64,000 nt of DNA from a virus (IMGVR_UViG_3300050821_006637:1-64000); one strand, 5' to 3'. Counted from the stretch's first letter, positions 30,120 to 56,548 are shown. Notes: a model not told the origin generated them from the letters alone. Numbers and translations are program-made.

Positions 30120-32933
30120 ATGCCTGTTGTCACAGACGTAAGAGACCATTTGAGATTGCCACCGAGGGTCTCTCCTTCTCTCTTCAAGCCGAAGTTTAAG
30201 AAATCCCTTCCTCCAGCCCTTCGATTTACAAAAAGATACTTCAAACCAGTCTATTGGTGGAAGTCTTTTGACTATAAACGAAAAGCAGCGGATGGCTCTG
30301 ACGCTAGTGCAGAATCTCTTTCTCCGGAAACTCCGGAACCGATTGAACCGCCGAAAGAGGCACCGAAAGAGGAGAAGAAACCGAAAGGGTATTCTAAGGC
30401 TGAGTTAGCTGACCCCGCTTTGTTGGAAGCGAGGAAACAAGCTAAACGAGAGGCACAGAAGGCAAGACAAGAGGCTAAGAAGACCGGAACGTATGTTCCT
30501 AAAAAAACTGGTGCTCGTCAAGGTATGACTCCGGAGCAAAAGGCGGAAAGAGAACGGGAAAGAAGAAGGGCACAGAAAGAAGGAACGGAGTTAACTACTT
30601 CCACTGGGGAATCCACCGAGCAACACGCCGAACGTCTTGCCAATACGAATGAGGAATTAAAATTACAAGCACGGAAAGTCACCCAGAATCGAAGAGGGTG
30701 GGAAACACCGGAGGATTTTAAGGAGCGAGTAGATACAATTGTAGATAGAAGAATGGCTTCCCTGAAGAGACCAAAGAAACGAGCTATAGTCGAAAAGCAA
30801 ATTCTAAATGAGATTATCCAATCAGGGGAAAAGAATAGAGGTTATACGGAAGAGCAGTTAGATGAGGAACTCGGTAAGCGGGTAGATAAAGAAGCTGAAA
30901 AGAAGTATGGGAAGCCGCCCTCTGAGATAATGGCTTTGGCTGAGAAGGATGATTATCTGGCTCTTGAACTAGCTGAACTGATAGACAGAGTCCGTTCCCA
31001 AATCAAACGAGAGTGGTCCTATAAAAAGAAACCTACTCTCGCTCCCAAAGGTACAGACAAAGCCAGAGCGTGGCAAGGACTTGAGCCAGCAGAAAGAGTG
31101 GAAGGGGAAGTGAGCCCCCATCCTGAAGAGATGCCTGTCGCTTCTACAGACCAACCCAATAGATTCGTTCCTTCTACGGAATTATCAAAAGAGGGAGAAG
31201 GGACTAAGAAACCTAGCAGGATGCCCCCCTTTATTCCGCCTCCTCTAAAAGGGAAACCAGGCTCAAAGCCCCGTCGTGGAGAAACACAGCCTCAATTAGA
31301 CCCATCCGTAAATCCACAGATTCCCCTTGAGGATTTACCTGGAACGACTCCTATTCCTACAGATTTTGGACGTGGGTCAACAGAGCACGGCACTCCGTTC
31401 ATTCCCCAACCGGAAAGAGGGAAGCCTGGTTCGAAACCTCGGCACGGAGAAACAATCTCTCATGTCCCGCAGATTCCTCTTCACGATATTCCTGGAACGG
31501 CACGTCCCAATCCACAGGCTGCTTCTGTGGGTTATGGACAAGAGCGGACGCCTTCCAATCAAGGAGGCAATGTCGCCACCTCTATTCCACCAGAATCTGA
31601 AGACCCTCTGGCTATGGAGAAGATGCCCGAATACAGAGCCAATAAAAGAAAGTTAGAATCGGCATTCCAAGGTGGTGGGGAGTCTGGTTGGGGTTTCTCC
31701 GTTCCTTTCACAGAAAGAACAGCCTTCCCCCAGAGAATTAGACCAAAAGAAGGCGGAGGAATGGAACGAGTCCCCTTGAACGAATTTCCCAATGTTCAAG
31801 CACAGACACCAGAGAATCTAGAGGCCATAAAAGAAAGATATAGAACAGAATACCCTCCCCACCCTGTCGATCCTATATCTGGGAAGCCAATAACTCCTTT
31901 GAAACCACCTGAAATTAGAAGGAAACGCACTGCTTCCAGAGAGACAGAATACATTCCATTCAATGCTTCACCCAAAGATTTACCATTGGAAGTCCGTGAA
32001 GCATTAGGAGTGGATTGGAATAAGCCTCTTGGACGACAAAGTAAAGAAGCCAAAGACAATGAAGATACCTTTCTTTCTTTACTTAGTACAGAAGGAATGC
32101 CACAGGGATTGGTGGAAGGACCACCAGAGTCCAATGGTGATGTTACAGAAGGTGTTCAATATGCAATAAATAAGAAGTGGGGGAAACAAGTTTCCTTCTC
32201 TTATGTTATCCATAAGACGAAAGTAGAACCAGGAGAACCCCAACCTCCAGAGACGATGTCTGCAAGAGAGTTGAGAGAGACACTTCTGGGTATGAATCCA
32301 GAATATCCGATTGAGATGCTCCCAGATATTATTTCAGTTAAGAGGAGGAATGTCTTCGTTGCTACAGGTGGAATGGGTAAGAAGAAACGGGGGAAGCCTA
32401 CGGAAGCCCTTGTGATGAAGATGCCTGCCGGTAGCCGCGAAAGATATATGGATGGTGTTGCTTCTGAATTGGGACTTAATGTAGAAAGAGAAGACATTCG
32501 TCAGAAGATACAAGCCCAATTGGCGAATGAAGACCCGATGCTTTTCCAGTATCTGCTACGGAAAATGGGAGCCAGTGCAGAGGAAGCAGCGAAAGCGACA
32601 GCACAATACATAGGTGAGGCAGAAACCAATAAACTCTTCCGTGCCTACAGACAACGGACAGGGGATACGTCAAGATGGTTTAGCTCCCGTCGTGGAGCTG
32701 GGGAAGAGAACGCAGCTAAGAAACGACGAATGGCTGCTGCTCAACAAGCACATGAAACAGGTGAAGAGAATGCAGAACGTCTGCGACGTATGCAAGCTGG
32801 ACAAGTTGGTGGAATGGAACGCAGACGAGACCAGGCAGAGATAGATAGACGCAAGGAAGCTGAAAGGATTTATCAGCAGAAGGAAGCCCAGGAAAGATTG
32901 AAACGTGAACAAGGGTTAAGTGGGGGTCTTTAA
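30120..32933 (+). CDS. Large charged, Pro/Glu-rich, largely disordered protein; candidate internal head protein
   Basis: 937 aa; basic N-terminal leader with KKSL/KSF/RKAA; internal duplication PFIP..GKPGSKPR.GET...PQIPL.D.PGT. Confidence 0.7.
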   Translation: MPVVTDVRDHLRLPPRVSPSLFKPKFKKSLPPALRFTKRYFKPVYWWKSFDYKRKAADGSDASAESLSPETPEPIEPPKEAPKEEKKPKGYSKAELADPALLEARKQAKREAQKARQEAKKTGTYVPKKTGARQGMTPEQKAERERERRRAQKEGTELTTSTGESTEQHAERLANTNEELKLQARKVTQNRRGWETPEDFKERVDTIVDRRMASLKRPKKRAIVEKQILNEIIQSGEKNRGYTEEQLDEELGKRVDKEAEKKYGKPPSEIMALAEKDDYLALELAELIDRVRSQIKREWSYKKKPTLAPKGTDKARAWQGLEPAERVEGEVSPHPEEMPVASTDQPNRFVPSTELSKEGEGTKKPSRMPPFIPPPLKGKPGSKPRRGETQPQLDPSVNPQIPLEDLPGTTPIPTDFGRGSTEHGTPFIPQPERGKPGSKPRHGETISHVPQIPLHDIPGTARPNPQAASVGYGQERTPSNQGGNVATSIPPESEDPLAMEKMPEYRANKRKLESAFQGGGESGWGFSVPFTERTAFPQRIRPKEGGGMERVPLNEFPNVQAQTPENLEAIKERYRTEYPPHPVDPISGKPITPLKPPEIRRKRTASRETEYIPFNASPKDLPLEVREALGVDWNKPLGRQSKEAKDNEDTFLSLLSTEGMPQGLVEGPPESNGDVTEGVQYAINKKWGKQVSFSYVIHKTKVEPGEPQPPETMSARELRETLLGMNPEYPIEMLPDIISVKRRNVFVATGGMGKKKRGKPTEALVMKMPAGSRERYMDGVASELGLNVEREDIRQKIQAQLANEDPMLFQYLLRKMGASAEEAAKATAQYIGEAETNKLFRAYRQRTGDTSRWFSSRRGAGEENAAKKRRMAAAQQAHETGEENAERLRRMQAGQVGGMERRRDQAEIDRRKEAERIYQQKEAQERLKREQGLSGGL

Positions 32934-32955
32934 GAAGTTTTAGGAGACGCACATC

Positions 32956-33180
32956 ATGGATTCTGTTCCAGACTCGTGCTTCTGCACGAATCCTATCCAA
33001 TTCATCGCTAGTCCTACCGAATCTGCTCTACGACAGCAGGTTTACGATGAGACGAAGCAATCCGTCATCCAATTCATCACAAAAGTAGCCGCCTGTTGGA
33101 CGGATGATGTCATCGTGTCCAATGTATTGGATTCCTTGATTTGGGAACTTAATAATGAAGTAGAAGGAGATGAGAAATGA
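32956..33180 (+). CDS. Hypothetical protein
   Basis: GGAGA RBS. Confidence 0.55.
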   Translation: MDSVPDSCFCTNPIQFIASPTESALRQQVYDETKQSVIQFITKVAACWTDDVIVSNVLDSLIWELNNEVEGDEK

Positions 33181-33497
33181 AACGAATGATTTTGACTGTT
33201 GTCTTCAAGCACGCTTCTCAACCATTACAGATAATGTTGCCAGATGGAGAGGCACAGAGTCTCGTCCGTGCTTTCACGTCTGGTGCGAAGGCAGGTTATG
33301 CTCATGGCTATGTGAAAGAGGAGGACTTCACTTATTCTTTTGATTGGAGTGAAGTCGCTGCTCTTTATTTGAATAATTTGGAACTTTTGCAGAAGGCACA
33401 CGCAGAAGCACAGAAGCAACAGATGGCGGGAAAGCCGAGTCTTCCCCCTGGAAAGGGTTTTGGACCAGATTACTTTGGACAGAGTGGGAGGAATTAG
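33177..33497 (+). CDS. Hypothetical protein
   Basis: ATGA overlap, AAGGAG RBS. Confidence 0.6.
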   Translation: MKRMILTVVFKHASQPLQIMLPDGEAQSLVRAFTSGAKAGYAHGYVKEEDFTYSFDWSEVAALYLNNLELLQKAHAEAQKQQMAGKPSLPPGKGFGPDYFGQSGRN

Positions 33498-33499
33498 AG

Positions 33500-33922
33500 A
33501 TGAGTGATTTCAAACCAGGTGACGTAGTTAGATTGAAGAGTGGTGGCCCGAAGATGACTTTGGGGAACTTTGTCGAGATGGGTGGCAACCCTAGAACAGC
33601 CTATTGTTCTTGGTTTGATGGTGGAAAGATGGATACTGCTGCGATATTTCTCCATTGTTTGGAAAAGGTAGAGGAAGAAAGGAGTTGTGAGCCTAGAGTA
33701 GAATATCGTGCTCTTCCCTATGGTGGCAAGTTGTTGGAAGGAGCCAAAGGAACACACGTAAGCGATGTGATTGCCTATACTCTGCAGGAAGGTTATGATG
33801 GTTTCGTTTTCAATGATGTCATCGTCCGTGTGTGGAAAGATTGTACTATCGGAGAATTGATGGAAGAATATAATCGACTCCACAAATTGAAGTACGAACA
33901 GATGTATGGAAAAGGAAAGTAG
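33500..33922 (+). CDS. YodC/DUF2158-like domain protein
   Basis: FKPGDVVRLKSGGPKMT...CSWFDG. Confidence 0.75.
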   Translation: MSDFKPGDVVRLKSGGPKMTLGNFVEMGGNPRTAYCSWFDGGKMDTAAIFLHCLEKVEEERSCEPRVEYRALPYGGKLLEGAKGTHVSDVIAYTLQEGYDGFVFNDVIVRVWKDCTIGELMEEYNRLHKLKYEQMYGKGK

Positions 33923-33940
33923 AAAGAATAGGAGACGAAG

Positions 33941-34714: not shown

Positions 34715-34740
34715 TAAAGTAGGAAAGAGGAGACGCTAAG

Positions 34741-36468: not shown

Positions 36469-36492
36469 GAGTTAACTAGAAAAGGAGATGAA

Positions 36493-36927: not shown

Positions 36928-36939
36928 ATCCATCACAGA

Positions 36940-36997
36940 TTGACCCCTACCCCACTCTATCCATAAACTAGAGTGGGGTATTTTATTTACTGGGGTC
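36940..36997 (+). terminator. Perfect 12-bp hairpin plus T-tract, overlapping a sigma70-like promoter
   Basis: TACCCCACTCTA (36948-59) / TAGAGTGGGGTA (36969-80) then TTTTATTT; TTGACC-N18-TAAACT overlaps it. Confidence 0.55.
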
Positions 36998-37003
36998 TCT
37001 TTC

Positions 37004-40000
37004 ATGTCTCCCAAACCTCTTCCTCGCTTACCTAGTGTCCGTCCCTCTCCATATCGAACCAAATCCCTCTCTAAAGCCTGGGGACATTCCAGCGAATATT
37101 CCCCCGACCTCTATTCTGCGATGGATTTTGATGGTGATGTGAAACGAGGCTTGATACCAGTAAAGAACATCGCCCAACCGAATGACTTCTGGTGTCATCC
37201 CTGCTGTGTGGCGATGATTTGTCACTACTGGGGAGTAGGACCGAAAAACGTCGCCTCTATCGCCAAAGCCCTCGGCACGACAAGGAAGTATTCCACAGAC
37301 CCCAGAAAAGAAGTTCAATTCTACAAATCTCTCGGATTACAAGTAGAAGATAAGCATGAGATGACTTTGGAGCATCTCATGCACTATTGGAAGATTGGAT
37401 GGCCTTGTCAAATACTTTTACAAGAATATGGAGACCCGACAGAGGAGGAGAAACATCCCGACGCCAAGAAACACGGAGCTACGAGTAAGGATGACGAGGC
37501 TGCCTATGACTACGGACACTCTGTCGTCTATGTGGGAGGACCAGCTCTTGGTCTCATCTTTTGCCAAGATCCCAGCCTCGAAAATATTATGAGTAACGAA
37601 GGGGGTGACGAGGCGAAGGGGTTGATGCCCATTCCTGTTTTGAAGTTCCTCAAGGTATGGCACGACAGAGACCAGTGGGGTCATCAATATGTGCGATATG
37701 GAATCGCCGTCGGTCCTCCTCGTTGTGTTTCAACTAAAGGACTCAAGTCTCAAGTCGTTGCCGTCCCTGGTCGCTCTAACCAGCAGATAGCCAAGACACC
37801 ATTGAGCGGAGGAAATCTTTTTGGGCAGACTCCTGAGACGGAGGAAATGCGTCCTGTCTGGTACGGAACTGGAGAGGGGAGGAATCCAAAGAACCCAGAA
37901 TTGACGGAAGACCACCCAAAGCACAGATTGAAGAGTTTAGAGAAGAGTGATGGACATAAGCCTACTCTTGCTGTTGACTTAGATGGAACCCTCGCCGAGT
38001 ATGATGGATGGAAGGGAGAGGAGCACTTTGGAAAACCTCGTCAAGGTGCCAAAGATGCGATGCAAGCCTTCAAGCAAAGAGGCTACGAAATCATCATCTT
38101 TACGACACGAGGCAACACAGAATTAGTCCGTCAATGGTTGAATGAGAATGGAATAGTCTTTGATTACATAAATGAGAATCCCCACCAGCCAGAAGGTTCC
38201 AACGACGGAAAGCCGATTGCCGACCTTTATATAGATGACAGAGCAGTGGATGCCAGAGGCGAGTGGAGTAAGATAGTCTCCGAAGTTGAAAGAAGGCTAC
38301 GAAGTAAGCCAGAGGAAAAGAAATCAAAGTTCTCCTCCACGCAGTTCAACCTCGCAGAAGCAGGCTATCCCCGCTCCCAAGGTTCTCCCCTTGAAAAGAT
38401 AAAAGAACTCCAAGATAGAATCTCGGATGACGATTTGGCGGATGATGGTAAAGAGAAGGAGCACCACGTCACCTGTCTCTATGGTATTCATTCTGAGAAC
38501 CCAGAAGAAGTGAAGAAGGTGGTAGAGCACTGGGTGAGGCATCATTCAAGGACTATCTATGCCAAGTTAGGTGAAGTCTCCATCTTTGCAGGTGGTGAGG
38601 ATAAAGATTACGATGTGATTAAGATTGACGTGGAGAGTGAGGATTTGCACTCTTTGAATAAGATACTCAAAGAAAGTTTAGAGCACACGGACACCCATCC
38701 TACTTATCATCCACACTTGACGCTTGCCTATGTGAAGAAGGGGATGGGAGAGCAGTACGCTCAAGGTTTGAATGGGATGTGGAGTCCTGGGCACGAACTC
38801 CTCTTCCACAAACTCCATTTCTCAGATAAGGATAGAAAGCACACGATAATTGACCTTTGGGACTTGGCGAAGAATGAAGTCCCTTCCAAGTGTCTCCTCT
38901 GCGGCAGTCATAAAATCAAGGCTTTCCAAGATGGTGAGCCAGGATGGAGATGCACAGAAGCTCCTTGTGAGTGGTCGTTGACTCAAGCGGGAGCACCGAA
39001 TGACCATATGGAGGCTCCTGGCGGGATGACTGTCATCCAAAACCAGGAACCTTGGGAACGGAGCGGAGGAGAGAATCAACACTGGGAGAGGGACGGACAA
39101 CTCTTTTACTTCGGTCCCTCATTCCAAAATCCTTCGTATCCAAACTATCCTAGAAAGAAGGATTTGGATGAAGCCGAGGGTACACAGCAGCCGAAAACAG
39201 AGGAACCGAAGCAAGTAGAACAGCCAGAACAGGCAAGACAACCAGAGCAACAACCATCTGTTCCAGTTGAAAGGTCAAATCAATCTATAGAACCACTACA
39301 ACAGGATAAAGTAGAATCTGCCCCAGTGCAACAGGATGACTCGGAAGAAATTCATCATACCATTGGAAAATGGATAGATGACAGATATGCGGATAAATTT
39401 GCTGAATATGCGTCGGCTGTTCCACAGGTTCGTAACTGGTTGAAATGGGTTGGACAGCAACCAGCTTCTGGAGAAAGCGGTATTAATGAGGCTGTTTGGG
39501 TAGAGGATGCAGATGTAGTTTCCAATATGGTGATGGCATCCCAACAGAATCCAGCCATCCTTAATGAAATCCGTCCTGGCTTTGGGCATATGAAGATAAG
39601 AGAGGAAAAACAGAAACAGCAGCAGGCAACCCTTCCACTTCTCGTCCCAATAAAAGACCCTAAGAACTTCGGACAGATTTTGAATAGAGGACAAACGGCT
39701 GGAGGATTGGCGATTCCTCTAAACATTAGTATGGAGAAGCGTTCCTATCCTCCAGAGATTGGGCAGTTCGTTGTTTTTAGAAACCCAGAAGGAGAAACCA
39801 TTCAACTTGGCAGGATAAAAGATGTCCAGCCAAGAGAGAACAAGTGGGATATTAAGATAGAGCCGCAGTATAGACAAGAGTTTGAAAAGGATGAACTGGA
39901 GGCTTATGAAAATGGGCTCAATGCAGGGTACTCCCCAACTGACGAACTACCATTCCCAAAGGAACCTAAACTTGCTCAACTCTTTTATGCAGGGGTGTAT

Positions 40001-43708: not shown

Positions 43709-43905
43709 AGATAGAAGTTCACTTTCGAGACCAAATTATCGGCACAGGCACCAGCCGAGGGAATGAAGTCTTTTGGGAAGGTGAAGGCTCCAACCGAATA
43801 AAAATGATTGCCGCCCATTATGAACGACAAGGGTTCAAAGGAGACGTTCTACTCCAAAAGATGTTAGAAAGACTCCAAGGAATGTGGTGGGCTCAAGAAA
43901 TATGA
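43705..43905 (+). CDS. Small protein coupled to the kinase domain; putative immunity protein
   Basis: ATGA overlap with the upstream stop; resembles 47458..47712. Confidence 0.6.
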   Translation: MKIEVHFRDQIIGTGTSRGNEVFWEGEGSNRIKMIAAHYERQGFKGDVLLQKMLERLQGMWWAQEI

Positions 43906-46900: not shown

Positions 46901-47465
46901 TAAATTTAATCTAGTACCGGAAACCGTCCTCCGTCTCCAGAATGGAGCTCCAGGCAGTATGCAGAGTTATGTTGAAAACTTTAGAGCAGCGAGTGAAGTT
47001 GACTCAAAAATAGCTTATGGCAATAATCGAGAAGCCCTCCAATGGGCTTGGGTTTTGGATTACTTGACAGGAAACACAGATAGACATTTAGGTAATCACG
47101 GAATAAATGAATCTGGAGAATTAGTGTTGATAGACAATGGTTTGAGTATGCCGAGCAGAACAGCACGATTTGAAAGAATGTTTGAGTACCGAGCGGCGAA
47201 TATCCTTGCCCAAGGTATTACTAAAGATATAAAGCTGCCCGATGTCGCTTCCATCAAAGATAAATGGGCGACACTTGAAAAGATATTCATAGAATGTGGA
47301 ATAGATGAAAGGGCGATAAATTTGGCTAAATATAGATGGAACGATTTAGTTCTATTCTCTGGTCGTGCGTGTAGAGACGTTCCGTCTCTTTCTGGTAATA
47401 CGACTATGTACGGAATGTATACGAAACAGATAGACCTATTGAAAGCAAGAGGGATAAATGCTTAA
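43902..47465 (+). CDS. Polyvalent effector protein: GNAT acetyltransferase-like domain and C-terminal HipA/PI3-4-kinase-like domain
   Basis: LKPQYRNNGEGS...NGVTTWPLLGYD (GNAT motifs A/B); LGKGENGA, RREIA, LVPETV, GSMQSYV, LDYLTGNTDRHLGN, LIDNGL. Confidence 0.85.
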   Translation: MNFLSLKEIEFRLKETDNPEWIERATPLLKEAFRQWRHLHSKSASRSPQGKEMASVHPSPYSKMLYSKKARPKVTFTGRQTDAQGRQTCFRGGKHAPCEEFGGQNQGWTGVEQEHLQKEGEKDLETTEIEQKKPKLPEKVGENPQIQQPEQPEAEERAKIQPNPSKVEGFTEEQPEQVKTTEEPKKPLPSSPSTKPISKFKISSENAKLNPYFDDGYWEEIKESIRGLISSGSESSIQTQDITQDQTAGILASFVGAPPNSTIQVFDVSQKSGGRYTTLDVTNPMFKNCVRTLLVRSNGTKEIRNEELVLKPQYRNNGEGSNIFYAQVQNAAAYGFSEISTSAGSGRDMNGVTTWPLLGYDASIQELFDGLRNPESYDYFKRIFPNAYSISEIIESPEVPLSKDQLRQVNYSLASLAQWRGLPYTKKNVVNGRDWWKAFIQQSRHLTISVDMTFNLHEGSTSRRILEAYMKQRQRRTKAMDMPKEDYEDINLAPWEEEALERAWDSLDKQTYGQKGLPPLPDQTETTLKSPPKVPQSRFHSFFHEHKALGERKAPPAPGKYPSDLNVSKVTSNPLPNAHPPGEQPPPVPENSVQHGAPDTAALQQIERLVGERGQGTGLAHEIRAHQVDASILQQFQAHGVASLTDLSSFLRQQGEADSANLTEFHDDESPFVVLSQPQQQISGQNAPSVVVGKPYDRVIHLLEEAFPGVHFLPVEEAANQLKEAAQSNPLPAAKSFGQKSNSVVDNTNTKLPRMPSHQTQSTSKPGGAQQQPQQAPTQAPQAVQPVQQAIPAPLAQTQSTTHFQPQIQQPVEQSAQPLNQASVEPIQQIEAPLTGTQDSGALNLSPEGPNAYYDYASASLYGEKMAEQAQKLYEQQGLPYEEAASLAKDAYNQAVDEWNQARWNEKGMNEAPLPEGETLTSLTTEIGRFLSTAPEVKKEKLGKGENGAWNVEVEGGYRGVQKLGRDEAFDAERTTGIKSGTMYRREIATSSVAKAILGDKFNLVPETVLRLQNGAPGSMQSYVENFRAASEVDSKIAYGNNREALQWAWVLDYLTGNTDRHLGNHGINESGELVLIDNGLSMPSRTARFERMFEYRAANILAQGITKDIKLPDVASIKDKWATLEKIFIECGIDERAINLAKYRWNDLVLFSGRACRDVPSLSGNTTMYGMYTKQIDLLKARGINA

Positions 47466-47712: not shown

Positions 47713-47802
47713 TGAAGACTAAACATTTCTTGCCTTAAACATCACATCTAATCTATCGTTCCTATAGGGTCTTTCTTTTCTTCCTATTAGGAGACTATAG
47801 CC

Positions 47803-48027: not shown

Positions 48028-48100
48028 ATTACTAATAGAGGGGTGCTTGGTTGCTATACTATAGTAGGGTTTCAGCAATTTCCTATTATAGGAGACAATC

Positions 48101-49162
48101 ATGCAGGCAACAAAGAGAACTGGTGTTTATCTTTGGAAGTGCTTAGTGTCTGGGAAATGTTATGTTGGAAGTGCTTCTATCTCTTTTAAGGACAGGAAGA
48201 AGAGTCATTTAAGTGATTTACGAAGGGGAATTCATTATAATCGGTATTTTCAGGCTGCTTGGAATAAGTATGGTGAAGACACGTTTGAGTATTGGGAATT
48301 AGAAGTATGTCCTCCAGACCAGTGTATTGAAAGGGAGCAGTATTGGCTAGATTTGTATCAGGCAGCTGATTCTAGATATGGGTACAATTTATCCCCAACT
48401 GCTGGAAACTGCCGTGGCGTCATAAAAAGTGAGGAGGCAAGAGCCAAGCATTCCGTATTGATGAAGAAAAGATATGAAGACCAAGAAGAAAGAGAAAAAA
48501 CAAGGCTCTGCACAAAAGAGGCATATGACGACCCTGGGTTAAGGGGAAAGATTTCTCAAGCAGTAAGAGCAGCAAATGAACGACCAGGGATTGTAGAGAA
48601 AAGGGCTGCTGCGGTTAAAAAGTCTTATGAGGACTTCCCTCTTCGTAAGAAAAAGAAGGCTGAAGAAGGTCTAGAGAATTGGAATAAGGCAACAGAAGAG
48701 GAGAAGAAAAGTCGGTTATCTGGTCTTGTTGCTTGTTGCACGGATCCAGAACTCAAGAAGAAGAAAACTGAAGCCGTTCGTGCTGCTTGGGAAAATAAAA
48801 CAGATGAAGAGAAAGCGGCTTACGCAGAAAAGAAAAGAAAAGATTTATCCAGTCCAGAGGTAAGGAAGAGGATTTCTGAAGGATGTAAGAAAGGCTGTGC
48901 TATACCAGGACAAAAGGAACGGAAATCTAAAGCCACTGCCGAAGGATGGAAAGACCCTGAGAGTAGGGCGAAGAGGATAGAAGGGCTTAAAAGAGCCGCT
49001 GCCACTAATAAGAAAGCGGCGGAAAAGCGTGTCGCAGGGATTAAAGCAGCCTGGGCAGACCCTGAGAAACGAGCGAAGCGGTTAGCGGCTATTAAAGAAG
49101 GTTGGGCGAGAAGAAGAGAAAGATTAAAAGAAGAGAAAACCAAGGTTCCAAAGGATGAATAA
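48101..49162 (+). CDS. GIY-YIG homing endonuclease with basic helical repeats
   Basis: TGVY..KCYVGSA..R...H, EREQYW, YGYN; repeated (W/Y)xDPExRxK. Confidence 0.9.
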   Translation: MQATKRTGVYLWKCLVSGKCYVGSASISFKDRKKSHLSDLRRGIHYNRYFQAAWNKYGEDTFEYWELEVCPPDQCIEREQYWLDLYQAADSRYGYNLSPTAGNCRGVIKSEEARAKHSVLMKKRYEDQEEREKTRLCTKEAYDDPGLRGKISQAVRAANERPGIVEKRAAAVKKSYEDFPLRKKKKAEEGLENWNKATEEEKKSRLSGLVACCTDPELKKKKTEAVRAAWENKTDEEKAAYAEKKRKDLSSPEVRKRISEGCKKGCAIPGQKERKSKATAEGWKDPESRAKRIEGLKRAAATNKKAAEKRVAGIKAAWADPEKRAKRLAAIKEGWARRRERLKEEKTKVPKDE

Positions 49163-52100
49163 AGAAGTTCTATCTCTGTTAGATGCAAGGGAAAAGGATT
49201 TCCCTTTCCTCGACTCGAGTCAATATAGTTACAAATTAGCAGGAGGATCATACGGGCATGACGTCCCAGTCGCCATTCGAGATTTGGATATAGATGAAAA
49301 AACGATGAGCCTGTGGATTCCCGTTTGTGACGGCAATCGCAGAGATGGAGTAGGAGATTTGCTCGATGTCCTTGGAATTGACACTTCTAGGCATAAAAAG
49401 AACCCCATATGTTTATTAGATCATGGGAAACAGATTCCACTTCCAATTGCAAGAGCCAGAGAAGACCCCAAAGATGAGGAATCTTACACCTTTCGAATAA
49501 ATCCTGGGGAAAAGACGGCAGGATGTAGGGCATATTTTTATCAAGGAAAAGAGAATTGTGATGAAGTATTAGGATGCAAACAATTTGAGCACGGGATTCT
49601 ATGTCACCAATTGTTCCATATGGCGGCAAACGGGTTTTTGAACTCAGGTTCCATAGGCTACCAAATAATTTCTGCCGACCCACTTCCAGAAGATCCATAT
49701 CGTGGCATACCACGAGGGATGCATCTACAAAGGATACTTGCCCTCGAGAATTCTTTAGTCGTTTTGCCGGCCTCTCAGGATACTGTAGGAAAGTCCACTA
49801 ATACAGATGTATACCCCTACTCCGCCAAGCACTTGGAGGCTTGGGAATACACCCAAAAATCTCGCATCTGTGGCTCCCCTCCCTCCCCCTACTTAATCAA
49901 AGCCTTCAGTTCCTTCGCTCCTCCTCATAAGGCACAAGTGGTAGGTGGCTATGATTCTAAAGGAATGAGAACTATTATAGAAGATAGTTCTGGTAATCCT
50001 AGAGTCACTTCTAAACCATTAGGGAAAGGAGGAGTTGAAGATACTGCAAAGGATTTGTCTATTCATACAAAGTCGGCAGAAGCAATATTACACGGAAAAC
50101 CACACCCCCCAGGATGTAAATGTGCCAAGTGTATCAAGGAACTCCCATCCAAAAAGTCCTGTTCTTGTGATTCCTGCTCCAAAGGTCACTCGTGTCCTTG
50201 CGACACGAAAACCAAGGGAGTGAAGGACTTAGAGAATCAACCTGCTTCTGCTCTTCCTGAGAAGCCGACGACGAAGCCTGTTCCCACGTCACAATCTGCT
50301 CCGGGTTCTCCGCAACCAGCACAGCAGACGAAAACACCGAAACAGGCTGCGAATGTAGGACAACAGACTCCTCGTAACTTAACTCCTGCTCCTGCTCCAG
50401 TTCCTTCTCAACAGCAAGGACAGGCATCGCAGCAAGCGTCCGTTCAAAATACTCCACAAGGACAGATAATAAATCCAGTTACGCCTAATGCCGCTCTCTC
50501 TGGCCTAAGTACTGGAGCAGTGGAGATACCACAAGGGCAGCAGATTCCTCTCGCTCCGGTTCCTACTTTCAATCCTGCTCAACCTCAAAGAAATCCTGTC
50601 CAAAACACACCGCAAGGACAGACCCCTCCGCCTCTACCGAAACCAAAGTATCCCTACTCTCTACCTGTTCCCCCTGGTCAGCAAGCTGAACAAGCTCCAC
50701 AAACCTCTGGTCCTCCTCCACTTACGCCTGAAAGACTTGCGGCTACGCAAAGAACGAATTTCAACCCCAAGAATCTTCATCTGAAGAAAGTCGATTACTC
50801 CAAGTTAACACCAGAGCAAGCGACGAAGAAAGCCACGCAAGCGGCTCTAGCTGCTGGTGCGAATAAAAAGCAAGCACAACAGATTGCGAAGCAAGTCGTA
50901 GAACAGATGAAGAGGATGGGGAATAGACAACATCGTCAACAGCGGAATGCTAGATGGACGCCCCAAGGACCGAAATCCTTGGATATGAATTTCCATATCA
51001 AGTCTCTCCGCTCTAAATATGGAAAGAAGTCCTTACCGAATACAGGTAGGAAGTTTGAGGCGACGCCAGATGGGTCTTCACTTACACCGAAACTTCGTGG
51101 TGCCCCCAAGGTTCCTGGTCCCAAGCCAGTTGGAGAAGGTGCTTCACAGACACCTCCTGTCACTCCTAAACAAGACCCTACTTTCAAACCAGTGAAAGAA
51201 ACACCACCAGGAAATATTGAGGCGTATAGAAACGTCGGTGACGCCTCCAGTGGTGCATCAAATAACGAATCTAGAGAACCTCTCACGGAAGGAAGTATTC
51301 TGCCAGAGGAAGGATTTGAAGAATACCAGGAATGGACTCCAGAGAGTAATGAAGTAGGAGAGGAAGGAAGTGGAGAAGCACAAGAATATTTAGAACCAGA
51401 CCACATTGATTTATGGATAGGAAATCACGTAGCCAATCTTGTGGATTCTGGTGCCTTAGAAAATTGGAATAAGGAAGATGGTTTTGATGCCTCTATTACA
51501 GAAATAATGGATCAAATTAGTGACGAGGCAAGAGCAGAAGGGTTTGAGGGTGAAGAATATATCAAGATTATGGATGGGGTAATAGAAAACCTTCGGCTCG
51601 TATGGCTTGATACATTTGGAGATTGGGGTGGTGAAGGAATCGGACCTTTTGAAAAATCCCTCCGCTCCAAATATGTGAACAAAGATTCAAAGAAAGAAAA
51701 GAACCCTCCAGCCAGACGAAATAAGAAGACTGCCAATCGTCATATGGCAGCAGGAATAAATTCTGCTTTGGATAAAAGTGCTGGACTTAAACATCTGGGA
51801 GTTCCTAGTATGAACATAGGGAACATAGGAATCAAATGGTTAGATAAAAAAAGTCTTCTGGGACTACGAGACAAGTATAAGACGGCGAAGGGAAGACTGA
51901 AGCGACACAGGAAAGGTTCCCCTTCCAAGGCTTCTGTCCACGTATCCAGTAAAGACCTTGATAAATTAAGAAAAGACGCCGAATCTAAAGGCGTTGCCGT
52001 CAAGTGGAGAAGTGATGATGGAAAAGGGATGGCGAAAGTCCTTTTAGAAGGTGATGGCGGCGTCATAGAAAAGTTGGCGAATGCTCACGGGAAACTGAGG

Positions 52101-54998
52101 AAGAAGAGTCTTATGGGTAGTGAAGCCAAAGACTTTACTGATACGAAGAAGCCTTTGGGACCGATTGGAACCCTTCCAGGTACTACTCCAAGCCGTGAAA
52201 GAGAAACCCTCCAGGAAGCTCCTCTCACCGAAGGTGAGTTAAGTACGGAAAGACCTGGCGAGCCAGAAGCAACGGATGTATTGACAGCCCATAAAGAGGA
52301 AAAGAATATGAAGGTGAAGACGAAGGCTGCCGACCCGTTGACGGACCCCAATATGCCTCTCCCAGAAGAAGGAACGGAAGATTCCCTCCCCCTTGAGGGA
52401 AACCCAGACCTCGGTGCCACAGATGAGATGGGTGGAGACCTTGGTGATGAAGAAGACTTAGGTGATATGGGTGGTGATGAGTTTGATATGGGTGGACTGG
52501 ATGAAGGTCCCGAAGCTGGTGGATTAGGCGAAGAGGGTTCTGGCGAAGAACCCTACGGAATGCAGGTGATGCGTCGTCTGTGGGATGACACCGCTGGTCT
52601 CCTCCACGAGTATGACCAGTTTATGGAACACTTGGAAGACGAAGCCACTCGTGGTCTCCTCCAGTCAATGCTTGAGTATCTGTCTTCCCACTTGGAACGA
52701 TTGGAAAGCCACGTAGCCAGTCATCCTCGCTACGGAGAATTTCCGGGTCTTGGTGGTGAAGAGGGTGAAGAAGGAGCCGAAGGGGAGATGGGTGAGGAGG
52801 CTCCTGGCTTGGAACCAGAAGAAGGTGAAGACGTAGAAGCCTCCAGTGGACAGAGAGAAGAGCCGACACCAGAAGAAGCTTTGATGGGAATGGCACCAGA
52901 TGCCGCTCAAGGTATTCCTGGTCCTTTTAAGAGTTTAGGAAGCGTGAAGGGTCGCTTAACGAAAGAGCAATACTTCGCTCGTGTCAAGGCTTTGAAAGGT
53001 CTTCACAAGACGAAAGCCATTGATGGCGGAGAGATGCCGCACGATGACGCCTCTTCAACCCAAGGTGAAATCCAAGGGATGAATGAAGAGGCGACGAATG
53101 GAGCCGAGACTCCTCCTGGCTTTGACCACGAGCATAAGAACCTCACCACTCTCGCTACGCTCGCTCGTCTCCGTAAGGATTTGATGGGAATGGGCGCTGG
53201 CGACCAGGAGGGTGAAGAAGAATTGCAGAAGCGACTGTCTCTCATCTCTAAGATTAAAAAGATTGAGTCCTTGGTGACAGACAAGGCGGAAGAGATTCCT
53301 GGTAAAGAGAGTGAGATTATCACTGGGCAGACTGGAAAGAAGTCACAGCCTAGTGAGCATACGGATTTGACTCCTGAAAAAGCGGGACGAATGTTAGAAG
53401 AGAATGAAGCTAACGGAGAACCTTTAACCAAGAAGCAACGCGGCTTCTTTGGAGCGGTACGCGGGAAGAAGGATAAAAAAATGAGTAAGAAGTCTTTGCT
53501 GCAAGAGCGGGTCTCCCTGCGTAACCGCTGGAAGGCCATCAAACAACTCCACGCCAAACATCTTGATGAAGTTAATCAAGAGAAATCCCTCATCTCCTCT
53601 ATGTATAAAGGACTTGAATCCAAACAGGATATGAAGTCCGTGCAAGAGAAGCAATGGCTCCATAAAAGATTCAAGGCTCTTGAAAAGAACCTTGACCCGT
53701 ATTCTCAAGAGAAGACCTACATCGTCTCTCGCTTCAAGGACTTGAACTACTCCTTGAAGAAAGAATACAACTGGGAACCTGGAGCGGAAGACAAGAAGGC
53801 GAATGATACCGTCAAGGCTTTCGCCAAGAAGTTCAACTCCAACCACAAGAATCTTTTGGGTGAGGCGAGGAAGTTTCTCACGGAACTCAAGTCTGTCTCC
53901 CCAATGGCTTTCGGTGACCCGCATCGCCAAGAAGCGTACCACCTTTCCAAGTGCTTGCACCAGATTATCGGTGATGTTTGTGGGAAAGGTTCCGTCCAGG
54001 CTGGATTGCAGAACTTGGCTAAGACGCTCGTCACAGAAGAGATGCCTGCGGAAGTTGGGAATAAGCCGAAGGGACCTTCCAAATACAATCCTAACGGCGA
54101 GCCGATGCAGCAGTGGGAAGAGTCGGAATCCGTCGTCAAGGGTAAGAAGAATGTTTCTTACGAATTCCCAGAACTTGCCAAAGAGAGGGAAGAAGTAAAC
54201 GTAGAGCACCCGAACTCCAATCCACAGGCGAAGCCACACGATGAGCATATGCCATACCACGAGGGAGAGCATCTTCCCATCGGTGGTGTGAATGCGAAGG
54301 GAATTGGCGAGCGAGGTAGCTTCCCTGAGATGTGTGAGGAAGATGGTGTTGTCAACCTCACCGACCCGAAGGGACCTTCCAAATACTCTCCAGGCAAAGA
54401 ACCCCTCCAGCAGTGGAAGGAAACCCTCGTCAAAGGTCTCCAGTCCATCGGTCAAACCGCCAACTTCTTTAAGATGCTGTCGTATAAGAAGGACTTCGGC
54501 GACGATGACCAGGAGATGGCTGGGAAGTTCGTCCTCATCCTTGCCCCCATTGAATCCCTCGCTGGTCATCTCGGTATGGAAGCCGAGGAAGGACTTGAGG
54601 GATTAGAAGAAGGTCCCTTCGGTATGGATGAAGGGTTAGAAGGTGAGTGGATGGAAGAGGAGATGGAAGAGCCAGAGCACGCTGACATCGCTAATGAAAT
54701 GGGCGAAGAGATGGGTGGAGAGGGAACTCCTGGCGAGTTGATGGAGGAAGAAGAGGGTGAAGAGGAAAATGAAGAGGAGGCTGCACACCCAGAGGCTCCT
54801 GGTGAGATAGGTGAGAAGAAACAGAAGAGCCTCGCTCACGCAACTACGAAGGAAGGTTCCAATGGCAAGATGCCTAAAAGGGGTGGAATGAGTGAGAAAG
54901 ATTTGAATGGTGTGATGACGGACAATATGCACCAGACACAGACGCTTTTGAATCTGCAACAGAGTTTACAGAACCTGTTGTCGAGATTACCGAATTAA
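49155..54998 (+). CDS. HK97-type prohead protease with about 1730-aa C-terminal extension (scaffold/cargo polyprotein)
   Basis: RDGVGD, NPICLLDHG (His), SGSIGY (Ser), LENSLVVLPA within the first ~210 aa; directly upstream of the capsid gene. Confidence 0.85.
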   Translation: MNKEVLSLLDAREKDFPFLDSSQYSYKLAGGSYGHDVPVAIRDLDIDEKTMSLWIPVCDGNRRDGVGDLLDVLGIDTSRHKKNPICLLDHGKQIPLPIARAREDPKDEESYTFRINPGEKTAGCRAYFYQGKENCDEVLGCKQFEHGILCHQLFHMAANGFLNSGSIGYQIISADPLPEDPYRGIPRGMHLQRILALENSLVVLPASQDTVGKSTNTDVYPYSAKHLEAWEYTQKSRICGSPPSPYLIKAFSSFAPPHKAQVVGGYDSKGMRTIIEDSSGNPRVTSKPLGKGGVEDTAKDLSIHTKSAEAILHGKPHPPGCKCAKCIKELPSKKSCSCDSCSKGHSCPCDTKTKGVKDLENQPASALPEKPTTKPVPTSQSAPGSPQPAQQTKTPKQAANVGQQTPRNLTPAPAPVPSQQQGQASQQASVQNTPQGQIINPVTPNAALSGLSTGAVEIPQGQQIPLAPVPTFNPAQPQRNPVQNTPQGQTPPPLPKPKYPYSLPVPPGQQAEQAPQTSGPPPLTPERLAATQRTNFNPKNLHLKKVDYSKLTPEQATKKATQAALAAGANKKQAQQIAKQVVEQMKRMGNRQHRQQRNARWTPQGPKSLDMNFHIKSLRSKYGKKSLPNTGRKFEATPDGSSLTPKLRGAPKVPGPKPVGEGASQTPPVTPKQDPTFKPVKETPPGNIEAYRNVGDASSGASNNESREPLTEGSILPEEGFEEYQEWTPESNEVGEEGSGEAQEYLEPDHIDLWIGNHVANLVDSGALENWNKEDGFDASITEIMDQISDEARAEGFEGEEYIKIMDGVIENLRLVWLDTFGDWGGEGIGPFEKSLRSKYVNKDSKKEKNPPARRNKKTANRHMAAGINSALDKSAGLKHLGVPSMNIGNIGIKWLDKKSLLGLRDKYKTAKGRLKRHRKGSPSKASVHVSSKDLDKLRKDAESKGVAVKWRSDDGKGMAKVLLEGDGGVIEKLANAHGKLRKKSLMGSEAKDFTDTKKPLGPIGTLPGTTPSRERETLQEAPLTEGELSTERPGEPEATDVLTAHKEEKNMKVKTKAADPLTDPNMPLPEEGTEDSLPLEGNPDLGATDEMGGDLGDEEDLGDMGGDEFDMGGLDEGPEAGGLGEEGSGEEPYGMQVMRRLWDDTAGLLHEYDQFMEHLEDEATRGLLQSMLEYLSSHLERLESHVASHPRYGEFPGLGGEEGEEGAEGEMGEEAPGLEPEEGEDVEASSGQREEPTPEEALMGMAPDAAQGIPGPFKSLGSVKGRLTKEQYFARVKALKGLHKTKAIDGGEMPHDDASSTQGEIQGMNEEATNGAETPPGFDHEHKNLTTLATLARLRKDLMGMGAGDQEGEEELQKRLSLISKIKKIESLVTDKAEEIPGKESEIITGQTGKKSQPSEHTDLTPEKAGRMLEENEANGEPLTKKQRGFFGAVRGKKDKKMSKKSLLQERVSLRNRWKAIKQLHAKHLDEVNQEKSLISSMYKGLESKQDMKSVQEKQWLHKRFKALEKNLDPYSQEKTYIVSRFKDLNYSLKKEYNWEPGAEDKKANDTVKAFAKKFNSNHKNLLGEARKFLTELKSVSPMAFGDPHRQEAYHLSKCLHQIIGDVCGKGSVQAGLQNLAKTLVTEEMPAEVGNKPKGPSKYNPNGEPMQQWEESESVVKGKKNVSYEFPELAKEREEVNVEHPNSNPQAKPHDEHMPYHEGEHLPIGGVNAKGIGERGSFPEMCEEDGVVNLTDPKGPSKYSPGKEPLQQWKETLVKGLQSIGQTANFFKMLSYKKDFGDDDQEMAGKFVLILAPIESLAGHLGMEAEEGLEGLEEGPFGMDEGLEGEWMEEEMEEPEHADIANEMGEEMGGEGTPGELMEEEEGEEENEEEAAHPEAPGEIGEKKQKSLAHATTKEGSNGKMPKRGGMSEKDLNGVMTDNMHQTQTLLNLQQSLQNLLSRLPN

Positions 54999-55081
54999 TT
55001 TTCACGGAAGCAAGTTCGAACGGAGACGGAATGTCGGTCCCAACTTAGAGGCCGGGGCCGGAACAGAAAGAGAAGAAGAAG

Positions 55082-56548
55082 ATGGCTGCTCCTACTTTTG
55101 AGACGGTAGCCCTGGCCACCCAGCAGAACGGCGAGGCTATCCAGTCGTTGAATAAAACCCTCGGGACTGTTGTTGATAAACTCTCCCGTATGCCAATGCC
55201 CGGACAACCGACGCCGGAACAAGCATTCGGTACTCCTTGGATTCGTAATGGTGAGAGTTCTTTGGATGACTCCAGAGGCTTCTCCTACCTCAAAATGATT
55301 GGGCACATCGCTGGCTTCGTCCCAGACGAGCAGTGCAAGCATGAGCGGAACCTCGCCATGAGAATGGCGAAGTGCCTCTATGCGGATGCTGGCAACGACG
55401 GCTATCAGTGGGCTTCTCAGAATCGCCTTGGTGAGAAGAAATTCCTCGCTCCACTCGCTCCTAACTTCCTCCAGGACAACTTCGTTGACCGGAGCTTCCG
55501 TCGTGAGATGAAGCAGATGGTCGCCGCAGGGACGGACGGAGCCGACCTGGGAGAAGCGAGCTGGATTAAGCGAAAGATGCTTTCCCAGCAATATGGGACG
55601 AAAGCCCTTTCTTGGTTGAATGAACTCACTGGTGGTGCTATCGTCGCTCCGCCTGAGATGGGTGAGTTGATTGAACTTCTGAGAAATAAAGAGGCTCTGG
55701 TCAATGCAGGAGCCAGAGTTGTTCCTCTACCTCCACAGGGTAGATTAAAGTATCCTCGCCAGACTTCTCCATCCAATACCTTCTGGGTTGGTGAGAACTC
55801 TCCTATCACAGAATCCATCGTCGGTACTGGTGAGATTACTCTGCAAGCTAAGAAGCTCGCAGTCCTCATCAAGGCACCGAACGAGTTGATTCGTTTTGCC
55901 TCACCTGCGGCAGAGGCGTTGCTCCGAGACGATATGACGAAGAGTTTGGCTCTTGGTTTGGATTTGGCTGGATTAGAGGGACAGGGGAGTGACGTCAAGC
56001 CTCGCGGTGTGATTAACTATCCTGGAATCAACAGAATCCAGTCCTCTCAGATTGGTGTTAACTCTGGTGGTGTGGTAGTTGGACAGGACATCTACCGAAT
56101 GATTGCTGCGGTAGAGGAAAGTGACGCGGAGTTCGAAGCGTACATCATGCGTCCGAAGACTCTGTATAAGTATTATCAGCTGCGAGCTGATGCCGTCGTG
56201 GCGGGTGATGCGGCTGGTCCGTATCTGTTCAACCTGATTAGAGAGGCACAGGATGACACGCCCGCTTCGTTGGCTGGTTATCCCGTGGTGAAGTCGACTC
56301 AGGTTTCTCAGACTCGTTCCTATGCGGCTGCGACAAATCTGACCTATGTGGTTGGTGGAATGTGGAGTGATATGCTCATCGGTATGTTCGGTGCGATTGA
56401 GTTCGCGGCGACCACGATGGGTGACACCGCTTTCGTCAATGACCAGACGTGGGTGCGTGGTATTCTGTCGGCGGACGTGCAGTTGAGGCACGAGGCGGCG
56501 TTCGTTTTACTTGACAATCTCAACACTCTAGTTACGGCGGCAAGCTAA
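55082..56548 (+). CDS. Major capsid protein, HK97 fold, with N-terminal delta domain
   Basis: GGAIVAPP, YPRQT, WVGENSPI, ITLQAKKLA, NELIR, LEGQG..PRGV, LAGYPV, D..LRHEAAF; likely maturation site GTK174|ALS. Confidence 0.93.
   Translation: MAAPTFETVALATQQNGEAIQSLNKTLGTVVDKLSRMPMPGQPTPEQAFGTPWIRNGESSLDDSRGFSYLKMIGHIAGFVPDEQCKHERNLAMRMAKCLYADAGNDGYQWASQNRLGEKKFLAPLAPNFLQDNFVDRSFRREMKQMVAAGTDGADLGEASWIKRKMLSQQYGTKALSWLNELTGGAIVAPPEMGELIELLRNKEALVNAGARVVPLPPQGRLKYPRQTSPSNTFWVGENSPITESIVGTGEITLQAKKLAVLIKAPNELIRFASPAAEALLRDDMTKSLALGLDLAGLEGQGSDVKPRGVINYPGINRIQSSQIGVNSGGVVVGQDIYRMIAAVEESDAEFEAYIMRPKTLYKYYQLRADAVVAGDAAGPYLFNLIREAQDDTPASLAGYPVVKSTQVSQTRSYAAATNLTYVVGGMWSDMLIGMFGAIEFAATTMGDTAFVNDQTWVRGILSADVQLRHEAAFVLLDNLNTLVTAAS

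Follow-up and report, generated by a model that had tools for sequence, protein, structure and literature searches.

The Head-Assembly Locus of an Uncultured Phage

The DNA considered here is a 64,000-nucleotide stretch (IMGVR_UViG_3300050821_006637:1-64000, hereafter the window), the first 64 kb of an 89-kb viral record in IMG/VR that CheckV estimates to be ~85% complete. Between positions 30,120 and 56,548 it encodes, among other genes, two giant multi-enzyme proteins of 2234 and 1193 amino acids (aa), a 1947-aa protein whose N-terminus is a prohead protease domain, and a 488-aa major capsid protein (table 1). A short lysine motif, which in the capsid protein marks the predicted maturation cut, recurs well above expectation in both giant proteins and in the long extension of the protease, and it tends to lie near the joints between the modules of the giant proteins. 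The best explanation of the record is that it derives from an uncultured HK97-like phage with a genome of ~100 kb, and that this region is its block of head-assembly and head-cargo genes.

The protease gene is directly upstream of the major capsid gene, an order that is kept in 13 related IMG/VR loci. In one relative, L007, whose capsid protein is 67% identical to that of the window, there is an 844-aa polyvalent open reading frame (ORF) with the same linkers, and downstream of it come a protease-extension gene (1089 aa) and the capsid gene. Comparable giant ORFs stand upstream of the protease and capsid genes in L014, L016, L018, L022 and L025, and giant ORFs lie upstream in the 13 loci as well, five of these ORFs sharing 2H or GNAT-like blocks with the window proteins. 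These comparisons support a gene order, polyvalent protein followed by protease followed by capsid protein, that is conserved in relatives. Against cultured phage records, the matches of the capsid protein were all below 30% identity.

Table 1. Features of the locus in window coordinates; an arrow in a sequence marks a bond that is known or predicted to be cut
Feature	Positions	Strand	Basis or remark
937-aa protein, low-complexity, charged	30120-32933	+	ORF call
Three small-to-medium ORFs between the 937-aa and 2234-aa genes		+	two methyltransferase-like by eye only
2234-aa polyvalent (multi-enzyme) protein, proposed head cargo polyprotein	37004-43708	+	Pfam, PHROG, homologues, motif
N-terminal leader, MSPKPLPRLPS followed by VRPSPYRTK20↓SLSK24↓AW	37004-37075	+	pLDDT <30, no secondary structure
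C39-like cysteine peptidase module, aa 52-179	37157-37540	+	PF13529 E 0.001, 20.1 bits (below the 24-bit cut-off)
Linker between C39 and HAD with K245↓GL, K248↓SQ, K310↓SL, K314↓SD	37736-37945	+	pLDDT 23-31, no secondary structure
HAD-type phosphatase module, aa 318-438	37955-38317	+	phrog_1238 1.6e-25; PF24694 5.7e-5
2H phosphoesterase module, aa ~441-625, after EKK440↓SKF	38324-38878	+	PF13563 3.6e-7 (above cut-off); phrog_755
Linker with K639↓AF, K719↓DL, then acidic P/E/Q spacer	38918-39160	+	pLDDT ~25, no secondary structure
ASK1103↓SLHIK1108↓SQ at the end of the M4 module (aa 732-1095)	40310-40327	+	P0004 homology block ends at aa 1095
K1320↓DM, before acidic spacer and putative ART-like module (aa ~1340-1450)	40961-40963	+	sequence
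VRLSPYSTK1530↓HL, then Cys-rich HiPIP-like module (aa 1546-1599)	41591-41800	+	PF01355 E 0.005, below cut-off
Capsid cleavage site and N-arm copy, DWK1663↓SLEK1667↓AMSWLASGSGGDLVDEPEWKGPRP, aa 1663-1690	41990-42073	+	capsid-arm profile E 0.006
SSPYSKMLYRTK1707↓AE, Cys knuckle, unassigned module, GRK1857↓AL, acidic spacer	42122-42574	+	
C-terminal PI3/4-kinase/HipA-like module	42701-43705	+	PF00454 E 0.005, PF20613 0.061, both below cut-off
1193-aa second polyvalent protein	43884-47465	+	motif, PF00454, shared blocks
353-aa ORF, GIY-YIG homing endonuclease-like	between the 1193-aa and 1947-aa genes	+	by eye only
1947-aa protein, prohead protease and extension	49155-54998	+	
Prohead serine protease domain, aa 1-249, ending SPPSPYLIK249↓AF	49155-49901	+	relatives' PF04586, fold, motifs
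~1700-aa scaffold-like extension of the protease	49902-54998	+	carries most of the protein's 35 motif matches
488-aa major capsid protein	55082-56548	+	PF05065 2e-33; phrog_617 3e-39
Delta (scaffolding) domain of the capsid protein, ending YGTK174↓ALSWLNE	55082-55603	+	conserved site
Mature HK97-fold capsid protein	55604-56548	+	PF05065 2e-33 (residues 185-478); phrog_617 3e-39
Head-tail adaptor gene	further downstream of the capsid gene		phrog_442

A Predicted Maturation Site in the Capsid Protein

A preliminary description of this DNA had proposed that the giant proteins are head-packaged polyproteins punctuated by the cut site of the capsid maturation protease. The ORFs that it named and all of the site strings that it listed do exist, and among them is GTK174↓ALS of the capsid protein. 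K174, L176, S177 and W178 are invariant in six relatives (62-69% identity), and the lysine site is kept in eleven more distant ones, with A, T or D at P1'. Position 2 of the Pfam capsid profile corresponds to residue 185, which is ten residues beyond K174↓A175; in HK97 gp5, which served as a calibration, the same profile position falls at residue 113, nine residues after K103↓S104 (FNK↓SLGS), a cut that is established experimentally (PMC10275583). This agreement in both sequence and place supports K174↓ALS as the predicted delta-domain trimming site equivalent to K103↓SL of HK97, and it is on this ground that the lysine motif of the putative polyproteins is taken to be a maturation site of the HK97 type. 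HK97 itself (L013) has further K↓(S/A)(F/I/A) matches at residues 193 and 217 in the tail of gp4, and at residues 9 and 75 in the delta domain of gp5.

The Prohead Protease and Its Extension

A search of 1.84 billion proteins with the first 265 residues of the 1947-aa protein recovered 386 cluster representatives (50% identity). In every one of them the match lies at the N-terminus, with a variable tail after it, and the whole proteins measure 231 to 2377 aa. The S78 protease model PF04586 is matched by 16 of 21 aligned relatives (42-51% identity), the best at 3.7e-6. The AlphaFold2 (AF2) model of the window's domain, which has a predicted local distance difference test score (pLDDT) of 73, found its best VIA-align match in T4 gp21 (5jbl_A; Z 8.5, root mean square deviation 3.1, 134 aligned residues); next came the assemblins of human cytomegalovirus (Z 5.5), varicella-zoster virus (4.7) and Kaposi's sarcoma-associated herpesvirus (3.8), with unrelated chains at 3.7 or less. 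Three motifs, DH90GK, GS166IGY and LE198xSxVxxPA, are invariant in the 21 sequences, and by analogy H90 and S166 would be the catalytic residues. Modelled fold, invariant motifs and the relatives' family matches together support the assignment of this N-terminus as a probable prohead protease of the S78/assemblin fold.

Several other searches were negative. When the 1947-aa protein was scanned against Pfam and PHROG, whether whole or as its first 260 or 382 residues, no protease family emerged, and the extension gave no Pfam or PHROG domain; no match was obtained with PF04586 in the whole 89-kb record, with a profile of the protease family among the PDB sequences, or when the protease domain was run by tblastn against 50,697 records of cultured phages. 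A single-sequence scan of IMG/VR with the protease domain likewise found no match, whereas an alignment query did find relatives.

The end of the protease domain carries the lysine motif throughout the family (consensus CGKPLSPYLVK↓SL; the aligned site of L007 reads PCGYLVK↓SL). In the 1947-aa protein as a whole, a match to the motif occurs on average every ~55 residues, and in the 13 related loci the protease-extension ORFs are similarly rich in K[SA]L, for example with 11 matches vs 0.8 expected, 14 vs 1.1 and 13 vs 1.0.

The extensions have other recurrent elements. Their C-termini are alike, with an amphipathic Q/L/N-rich stretch before the capsid gene (window ~54900-54995; also L002-L007) that may be the end of the scaffold that binds the capsid protein or its delta domain. 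The repeat (K/T)P(K/S)GP(S/L)(K/D)Y(N/S)P(N/G)xEP(M/L)QQ(W/H) is present at residues ~1636-1650 and ~1738-1752 of the 1947-aa protein, and is conserved, in three copies, in L007 (4265-7534). Another element, K↓SL-R-x-K-Y-x-x-K↓(S/A)L, occurs at residues 616-630, 834-845 and 898-915; it explains the enrichment of KYR (8.6x) in the protease family, and is also found at the C-terminus of the polyvalent protein P0158.

Giant Proteins Built of Shuffled Modules

The order of the modules of the 2234-aa protein, a matter absent from the preliminary description, varies among its homologues P0003 (2234 aa), P0004 (1867 aa), P0005 (3254 aa), P0158 and P0160, and homologues also combine modules of the 2234-aa and 1193-aa proteins in one chain. 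The C39-like module is conserved in P0003, P0005 and P0160. The block at 42122-42574 is common to the 1193-aa protein, P0003, P0004 and P0005, and blocks of the 1193-aa protein recur in P0004 and P0005, where they are fused to modules of the 2234-aa type. The 1193-aa protein itself has sites at K48↓SA, K75↓AR, K128↓DL, K484↓AM, K521↓GL, K553↓AL, K741↓SF and K746↓SN, a GNAT-like block at residues 256-521, and a kinase-like C-terminus that matches PF00454 at 30.1 bits, above the cut-off. P0005 carries PF18760 (ART-PolyVal), a hallmark of the class of polyvalent proteins predicted to be packaged in phage heads (PMC5512222). These features support the identification of the giant proteins, by their domain content, as probable polyvalent multi-enzyme proteins of the kind described by Iyer et al. 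(2017).

The enzymatic labels first given to the modules have fared unequally. Those of the HAD and 2H modules and of the kinase-like end of the 1193-aa protein stand; those of the C39 and HiPIP modules and of the kinase of the 2234-aa protein are weak; and ART and GNAT found no family match, Pfam giving nothing usable for the putative ART, GNAT, M4, M5 and alpha/beta modules. The number of "about ten separate enzymes" has to be reduced, as only 5-6 modules show any enzyme-family signal. MPTase was not detected in the window proteins. Two kinds of small Cys knuckle follow lysine sites, CP(D/N)GTPx7CxG and (F/Y)TGxFxDxxGRxxCxxxGxxxxC (window 40340-41890, 42122-42230 and 44103-44200), and related CxxGxNPxRDxC forms occur in ORFs of L004, L024 and L025.

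Enrichment of the Lysine Motif

The motif counted was K-[SAGD]-[LFMIA], and expected numbers came from shuffles of the residues. It occurs 17 times in the 2234-aa protein vs 8.3 expected (p 0.0025), 11 times in the 1193-aa protein vs 4.9 (p 0.007) and 35 times in the 1947-aa protein vs 11.8 (p <0.0005). Pooled, the three proteins have 63 matches where 24.3 (standard deviation 4.9) are expected, and 40 further ORFs in the window (11,082 aa) have 40 vs 37.7, so that the enrichment that had been predicted for these proteins relative to the rest of the window is borne out. The excess persists when shuffling is confined to blocks of 20, 40 or 80 residues, and local composition is therefore not the explanation. 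The reversed motif gives 34 matches vs 24.6 expected in the three proteins; with Arg at P1 there are 19 vs 14.8 and with Glu 32 vs 32.6, neither of them an enrichment. KSL by itself was observed 15 times, and 2.0 were expected.

The 937-aa protein had been included in the same system on account of its leader. Three matches do lie within its first 55 residues (K28↓SL, K48↓SF, K55↓AA), but overall it has 4 vs 4.7 expected and is not enriched, and its membership is doubtful.

A blind test, in which every tripeptide was counted and no motif was named, was made on the tails of 137 protease relatives (108,619 aa). KSL was the most enriched tripeptide of all, with 380 occurrences vs 37 expected (10.2x); KAL reached 5.9x, KDL 4.3x and KGL 2.9x, all of them high in the ranking. 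K[SA]L is present in each of the 137 tails, at least twice and with a median of five. In five homologues of the 2234-aa protein (8,886 aa), KAL (4.8x) and KSL (4.4x) rank second and fourth among tripeptides. These counts support a lysine motif that is real, directional and family-wide.

Sites at the Joints between Modules

Of the motif lysines, 62% lie within 20 aa of the end of a homology block, vs 43% of the other lysines (Fisher p 6e-4; Mann-Whitney p 5e-4). For a test of the joints themselves, ten module anchors were mapped into all homologues, and a site was defined as basic-[SAGDH]-[LFMIA] no more than 40 residues upstream. Such a site precedes 31 of 51 module instances vs 19 expected (p 6e-4). 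The HAD module has a K↓(S/A)(L/F) site 12-13 residues upstream of its core in 4/5 instances, regardless of its upstream neighbour; the 2H module has a basic↓(S/A/D)(L/F/I) site 4-14 residues upstream in 7/9; and the HiPIP-like module has a site 14-18 residues upstream in 4/7. This near-fixed distance, whatever the upstream neighbour, indicates that each site belongs to the module downstream of it and moves together with that module. In P0159 (517 aa, JGI), the 2H module is preceded by joints with the sequences EVKR↓AL and PEVAR↓AL, and this lineage may use Arg at P1.

For the first 720 residues of the 2234-aa protein, an AF2 model has a mean pLDDT of 49, the 2H domain alone being confident (79-93). 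The site-bearing stretches 1-63, 212-320 and 626-720 have no secondary structure and a pLDDT of 23-31; as the model is poor overall, such low confidence in the linkers is weak evidence.

An Extended Motif, a Leader and a Copy of the Capsid Arm

Immediately before the best sites stands the sequence V-(R/P)-P-S-(P/R)-(F/Y)-x1-7, as in VRPSPYRTK↓SL, VRLSPYSTK↓HL, VKSSPYSKMLYRTK↓AE, VHPSPYSKMLYSKK↓AR and, at the end of the protease domain, SPPSPYLIK↓AF. This extended SP(F/Y)...K↓ motif was found 7 times vs 0.75 expected in the window's four proteins and 12 times vs 0.98 in homologues, and 0 times in the controls. It also appears in the leader of the 2234-aa protein. Leaders of like kind head this protein, P0005 and P0003, the first modules of which differ, and from its sequence we propose that the leader is a propeptide, or else a targeting signal, with a cut site at its end.

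The stretch beginning at DWK1663 had been listed simply as one more doubled site; it is a copy of the capsid cleavage site together with the N-arm that follows. A 33-column profile of capsid residues 168-200, used in two hmmsearch runs (685 and ~110 sequences), matched P0003 (5e-7), the 844-aa ORF of L007 (3e-6), P0005 (9e-6), P0158 (3e-4), the 2234-aa protein at DWKSLEK↓AMSWLASGSGGDLVDEPEW (6e-3) and P0004 (0.02), and L022, L014, L015 and L018 gave further matches, in giant ORFs that precede the protease. Thus 10 polyvalent proteins carry a copy, as do 6 protease extensions from relatives, and there was no match in any other ORF of the window. The similarity spans the P1 lysine and ~20 residues of the N-arm, in the pattern K↓A(L/M)SWL..GGxLVAPP; the copies lie at residues 1187-1208 of P0003, 2433-2452 of P0005 and 320-342 of the L007 ORF at 415-2949. 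Judged by its sequence, the copy may act as a tag by which the proteins that carry it are loaded or anchored. In a single case, L018, Thr is at P1' in both the capsid site and the copy; in another single case, a 405-aa ORF that adjoins the protease in L024 begins M-ALSAIDTTLGGALVPP.

The GG of the capsid-arm copy was also considered as a double-glycine site for a C39 peptidase and was rejected: GGxLVP is general in the N-arms of HK97-type capsid proteins, and its hydrophobic spacing does not fit a double-glycine leader.

Proposed Processing inside the Head and the Alternatives

The reading that we favour, with a probability of roughly 60%, is that the polyvalent proteins are cargo that is cut at the lysine sites by the head maturation protease, inside the head. 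Under this reading the S78 prohead protease, fused to its scaffold-like extension, would enter the procapsid with a capsid protein bearing a 174-residue delta domain, and the two polyvalent proteins (2234 and 1193 aa) would be loaded alongside by means of the N-terminal leader, the embedded copy of the capsid N-arm, or both. The protease would cut after Lys in K↓(S/A/G/D)-(L/F/M), with the best sites those preceded by the extended motif. A cut at K174↓A175 would remove the delta domain and one at K249↓A250 would free the protease domain; the extension would be chopped to pieces averaging ~55 residues, many of them small enough to leave the head. The polyvalent proteins would be split at their module junctions into domain-sized proteins, that is, a C39-like peptidase, a HAD phosphatase, a 2H phosphoesterase, HiPIP-like and kinase-like proteins and several unassigned modules, and the head would retain these products until they pass into the host together with the DNA. 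We infer from the sequences the cutting at these sites, the agency of this protease, the location inside the head and the injection of the products. Of the polyprotein proposal as first made, the identity of the motif with the capsid site and the role of a prohead-type protease are supported, and a lysine site that stays with modules shuffled among relatives is added to them; the number of enzymes, the presence of a site at nearly every boundary and the inclusion of the 937-aa protein were overstated.

A number of observations weigh against this reading. Motif lysines are indeed nearer to block ends, but "nearly every" domain boundary, as originally claimed, is too strong: the M4 and ART-like modules have no site within 40 aa upstream of their anchors, and some joints carry degenerate sites (EKK↓SK, STK↓RA, RTK↓AE). 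Other matches are inside folded domains, K88, K108, K534 and K579 in the 2234-aa protein and K287 in the capsid protein; these are unlikely cut sites, and with several of them the motif by itself is insufficient to define a site. The enrichment in the two polyvalent proteins is just ~2-fold, and the family-wide excess of KSL comes partly from a few homologous positions that were counted repeatedly (e.g., K↓SL..LRxKYxxKG). The giant ORFs that stand upstream in more distant relatives show only weak enrichment (KAL 3x, KSL not listed). The window's own protease domain does not match PF04586 even at E 10, and Foldseek against the PDB gave nothing significant, the Epstein-Barr virus protease ranking 4 and T4 gp21 ranking 33 with poor scores. 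Neither portal nor terminase was found in the 89-kb record (~85% complete), a search with PF04860 also being without a match, which leaves the protease, capsid and head-tail adaptor genes as the basis for speaking of a "head module". Finally, an intact-looking C39-type peptidase lies within the polyprotein and could do part of the cutting.

The alternative that survives best, though we think it unlikely, is that processing is limited: the cargo is packaged, the protease removes just the leader (at K20/K24) and perhaps cuts the capsid-arm copy, and the other matches are features of linkers that stay uncut, so that the cargo remains a few very large proteins in the manner of the N4 virion RNA polymerase (vRNAP) or DarB of phage P1. 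The ~2-fold enrichment of the cargo, compared with 3-fold in the protease extension, fits such limited cutting, as do the junctions with degenerate sites or none, and there are known cases of large head proteins that are packaged without cleavage (PMC5512222; DarB, PMC9024508). The sites at constant distance before the HAD, 2H and HiPIP-like modules, across shuffled architectures, would be hard to explain if they were unused.

It is less probable still that the lysine motif and its SP(F/Y) prefix form a cassette that is not cut at all, being instead a linker or docking sequence (binding capsid, DNA or protease), a modification sequon for the nearby methyl- or glycosyltransferases, or a recombination-prone joint that favours the shuffling of modules, in which case its likeness to the capsid site would reflect shared binding and not shared cutting. 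The conserved stretch does exceed a typical protease subsite, as it takes in ~10 residues on the P side and, in the capsid-arm copy, ~20 on the P' side, and methyltransferase and glycosyltransferase genes adjoin; but the capsid site is exactly where HK97 is cut, the protease domain ends in the same motif family-wide, and the motif density of the scaffold-like extension fits removal by digestion.

The embedded C39-like peptidase of the 2234-aa protein might instead do the cutting, in cis or in trans, the prohead protease trimming the capsid protein and itself only. C39 peptidases cleave after Gly-Gly, not after Lys. Moreover, linkers of this kind are found in P0004, the 844-aa ORF of L007 and the 1193-aa protein, all without a C39 module, and the motif abounds in the protease extensions of 137 relatives. 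We regard this explanation as decidedly improbable, even with a C39_2-like module in place that has conserved Cys and His motifs, and with autoprocessing by embedded peptidases favoured in print for polyvalent proteins (Iyer et al. 2017, PMC5512222).

That the giant proteins are non-virion, late cytoplasmic multi-enzyme proteins and the motif excess a lineage-specific habit of sequence has very little probability: no portal gene was identified nearby, as such a reading would have it, but the motif is not enriched in the 40 other ORFs of the same phage, capsid-arm copies are confined, among the window ORFs and relatives tested, to polyvalent proteins and protease extensions, and the gene order beside the protease and capsid genes is conserved.

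If cargo is cut by the maturation protease as we propose, the strategy might extend to a large clade of uncultured HK97-like phages, represented by the 386 protease clusters. Polyproteins would then be used much as RNA viruses use them, but inside the capsid, with each module bringing its own lysine cassette, the capsid-arm copy (K↓ALSWL..GGALVAPP) acting as a loading or anchoring tag, and the N-arm serving as a general address for head cargo; one or two genes could in this way yield a dozen injected and freely reshuffled enzymes. We advance this wider proposal tentatively, and consider it to be somewhat short of an even chance.

Relation to Known Systems

The closest known systems are the polyvalent proteins and the protease-processed ejection proteins of T4, phiKZ and SPN3US, both discussed below. 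HK97 gp4 and gp5 share with the present system the predicted protease family, the site (FNK↓SLGS vs YGTK↓ALSW), its place, and a delta domain fused to the capsid protein. Gp4, however, has 225 aa, whereas here there are a ~1700-aa extension and two multi-enzyme proteins with the same site, and gp4 is not known to have any cargo. In P2 gpO and lambda C/Nu3, an N-terminal protease is joined to a C-terminal scaffold-like part that is itself processed. The extension here differs from theirs in being 5-10 times longer, hypervariable across 386 relatives and dense in the cut-site motif.

The proteases of the T4, phiKZ and SPN3US type are gp21-type enzymes and cut after Glu. In these phages the maturation protease processes packaged or ejected proteins, among them IPI-III and Alt of T4, with their capsid targeting sequence, and gp245 of SPN3US (PMC9026906, PMC5694885, PMC10052503, PMC9024508). 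As there, one short motif is shared by capsid protein, scaffold and cargo, the cleavage being predicted here from sequence, and the N-terminal propeptides that serve those phages as loading signals have a counterpart in the leader proposed above. Their substrates, however, are mostly single proteins that lose a propeptide, unlike the predicted lysine sites between the enzyme modules of a polyprotein and the S78/HK97-type protease of the present case. DarB of phage P1 is also a very large enzyme cargo that a short N-terminal signal directs into the head, as we propose here, but it is not reported to be split into modules, and the signal in our case may be a copy of the capsid N-arm (PMC9024508).

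Polyvalent proteins of phages and conjugative elements were described by Iyer, Burroughs, Anand, de Souza and Aravind (2017) as predicted to be head-packaged and injected, with domains that are shuffled (PMC5512222). The giant proteins of the window resemble them in their size, their many unrelated domains of effector type, their shuffling and, judging by the adjoining protease, capsid and head-tail adaptor genes, probably also their place among late or virion genes; the difference is that domain release was there attributed to embedded peptidases (MPTase), and here a maturation motif of the HK97 type is at the joints. The word "prohead" is confined in that paper to the reference list, and in our literature search no paper connected prohead-protease sites to polyvalent proteins. 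What has been published already is the existence of polyvalent proteins and the prediction that they are packaged, the processing of ejection proteins at a motif that the capsid protein shares, and the capsid-targeting signals of T4 and P1. If the cuts do occur, they would join two ideas that are unlinked in the papers searched, polyvalent effectors and the processing of cargo by the maturation protease, and would explain how giant multi-enzyme proteins are delivered as small, separately active units. The sequence rule, K↓S/A-L with an SP(F/Y) prefix, would then help to predict injected proteins and mature ends in uncultured phages, and the cut-site cassette and capsid-arm copy would be candidate tags for foreign cargo in HK97-type capsids, comparable to the T4 and P1 signals.

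Neighbouring Genes

Upstream of the cargo, protease and capsid genes are glycosyltransferase genes and intein-bearing genes. The 937-aa protein has one partial, nameless homologue and no Pfam or PHROG family. Two ORFs, at 48101-49162 and 56687-57574, bracket the protease-capsid pair and are homing endonuclease-like by eye only; the first starts GVYLW..YVGSA, which is GIY-YIG-like, and overlaps the start of the protease gene by 8 bases, and ORFs of similar size follow the capsid gene in L014, L022 and L023. Downstream of the capsid gene there are also one to three tandem paralogues of ~180-280 aa ending ..TTGSGGG(F/Y)(T/S).. (L001-L006; window 57556-59013), which may be decoration proteins.

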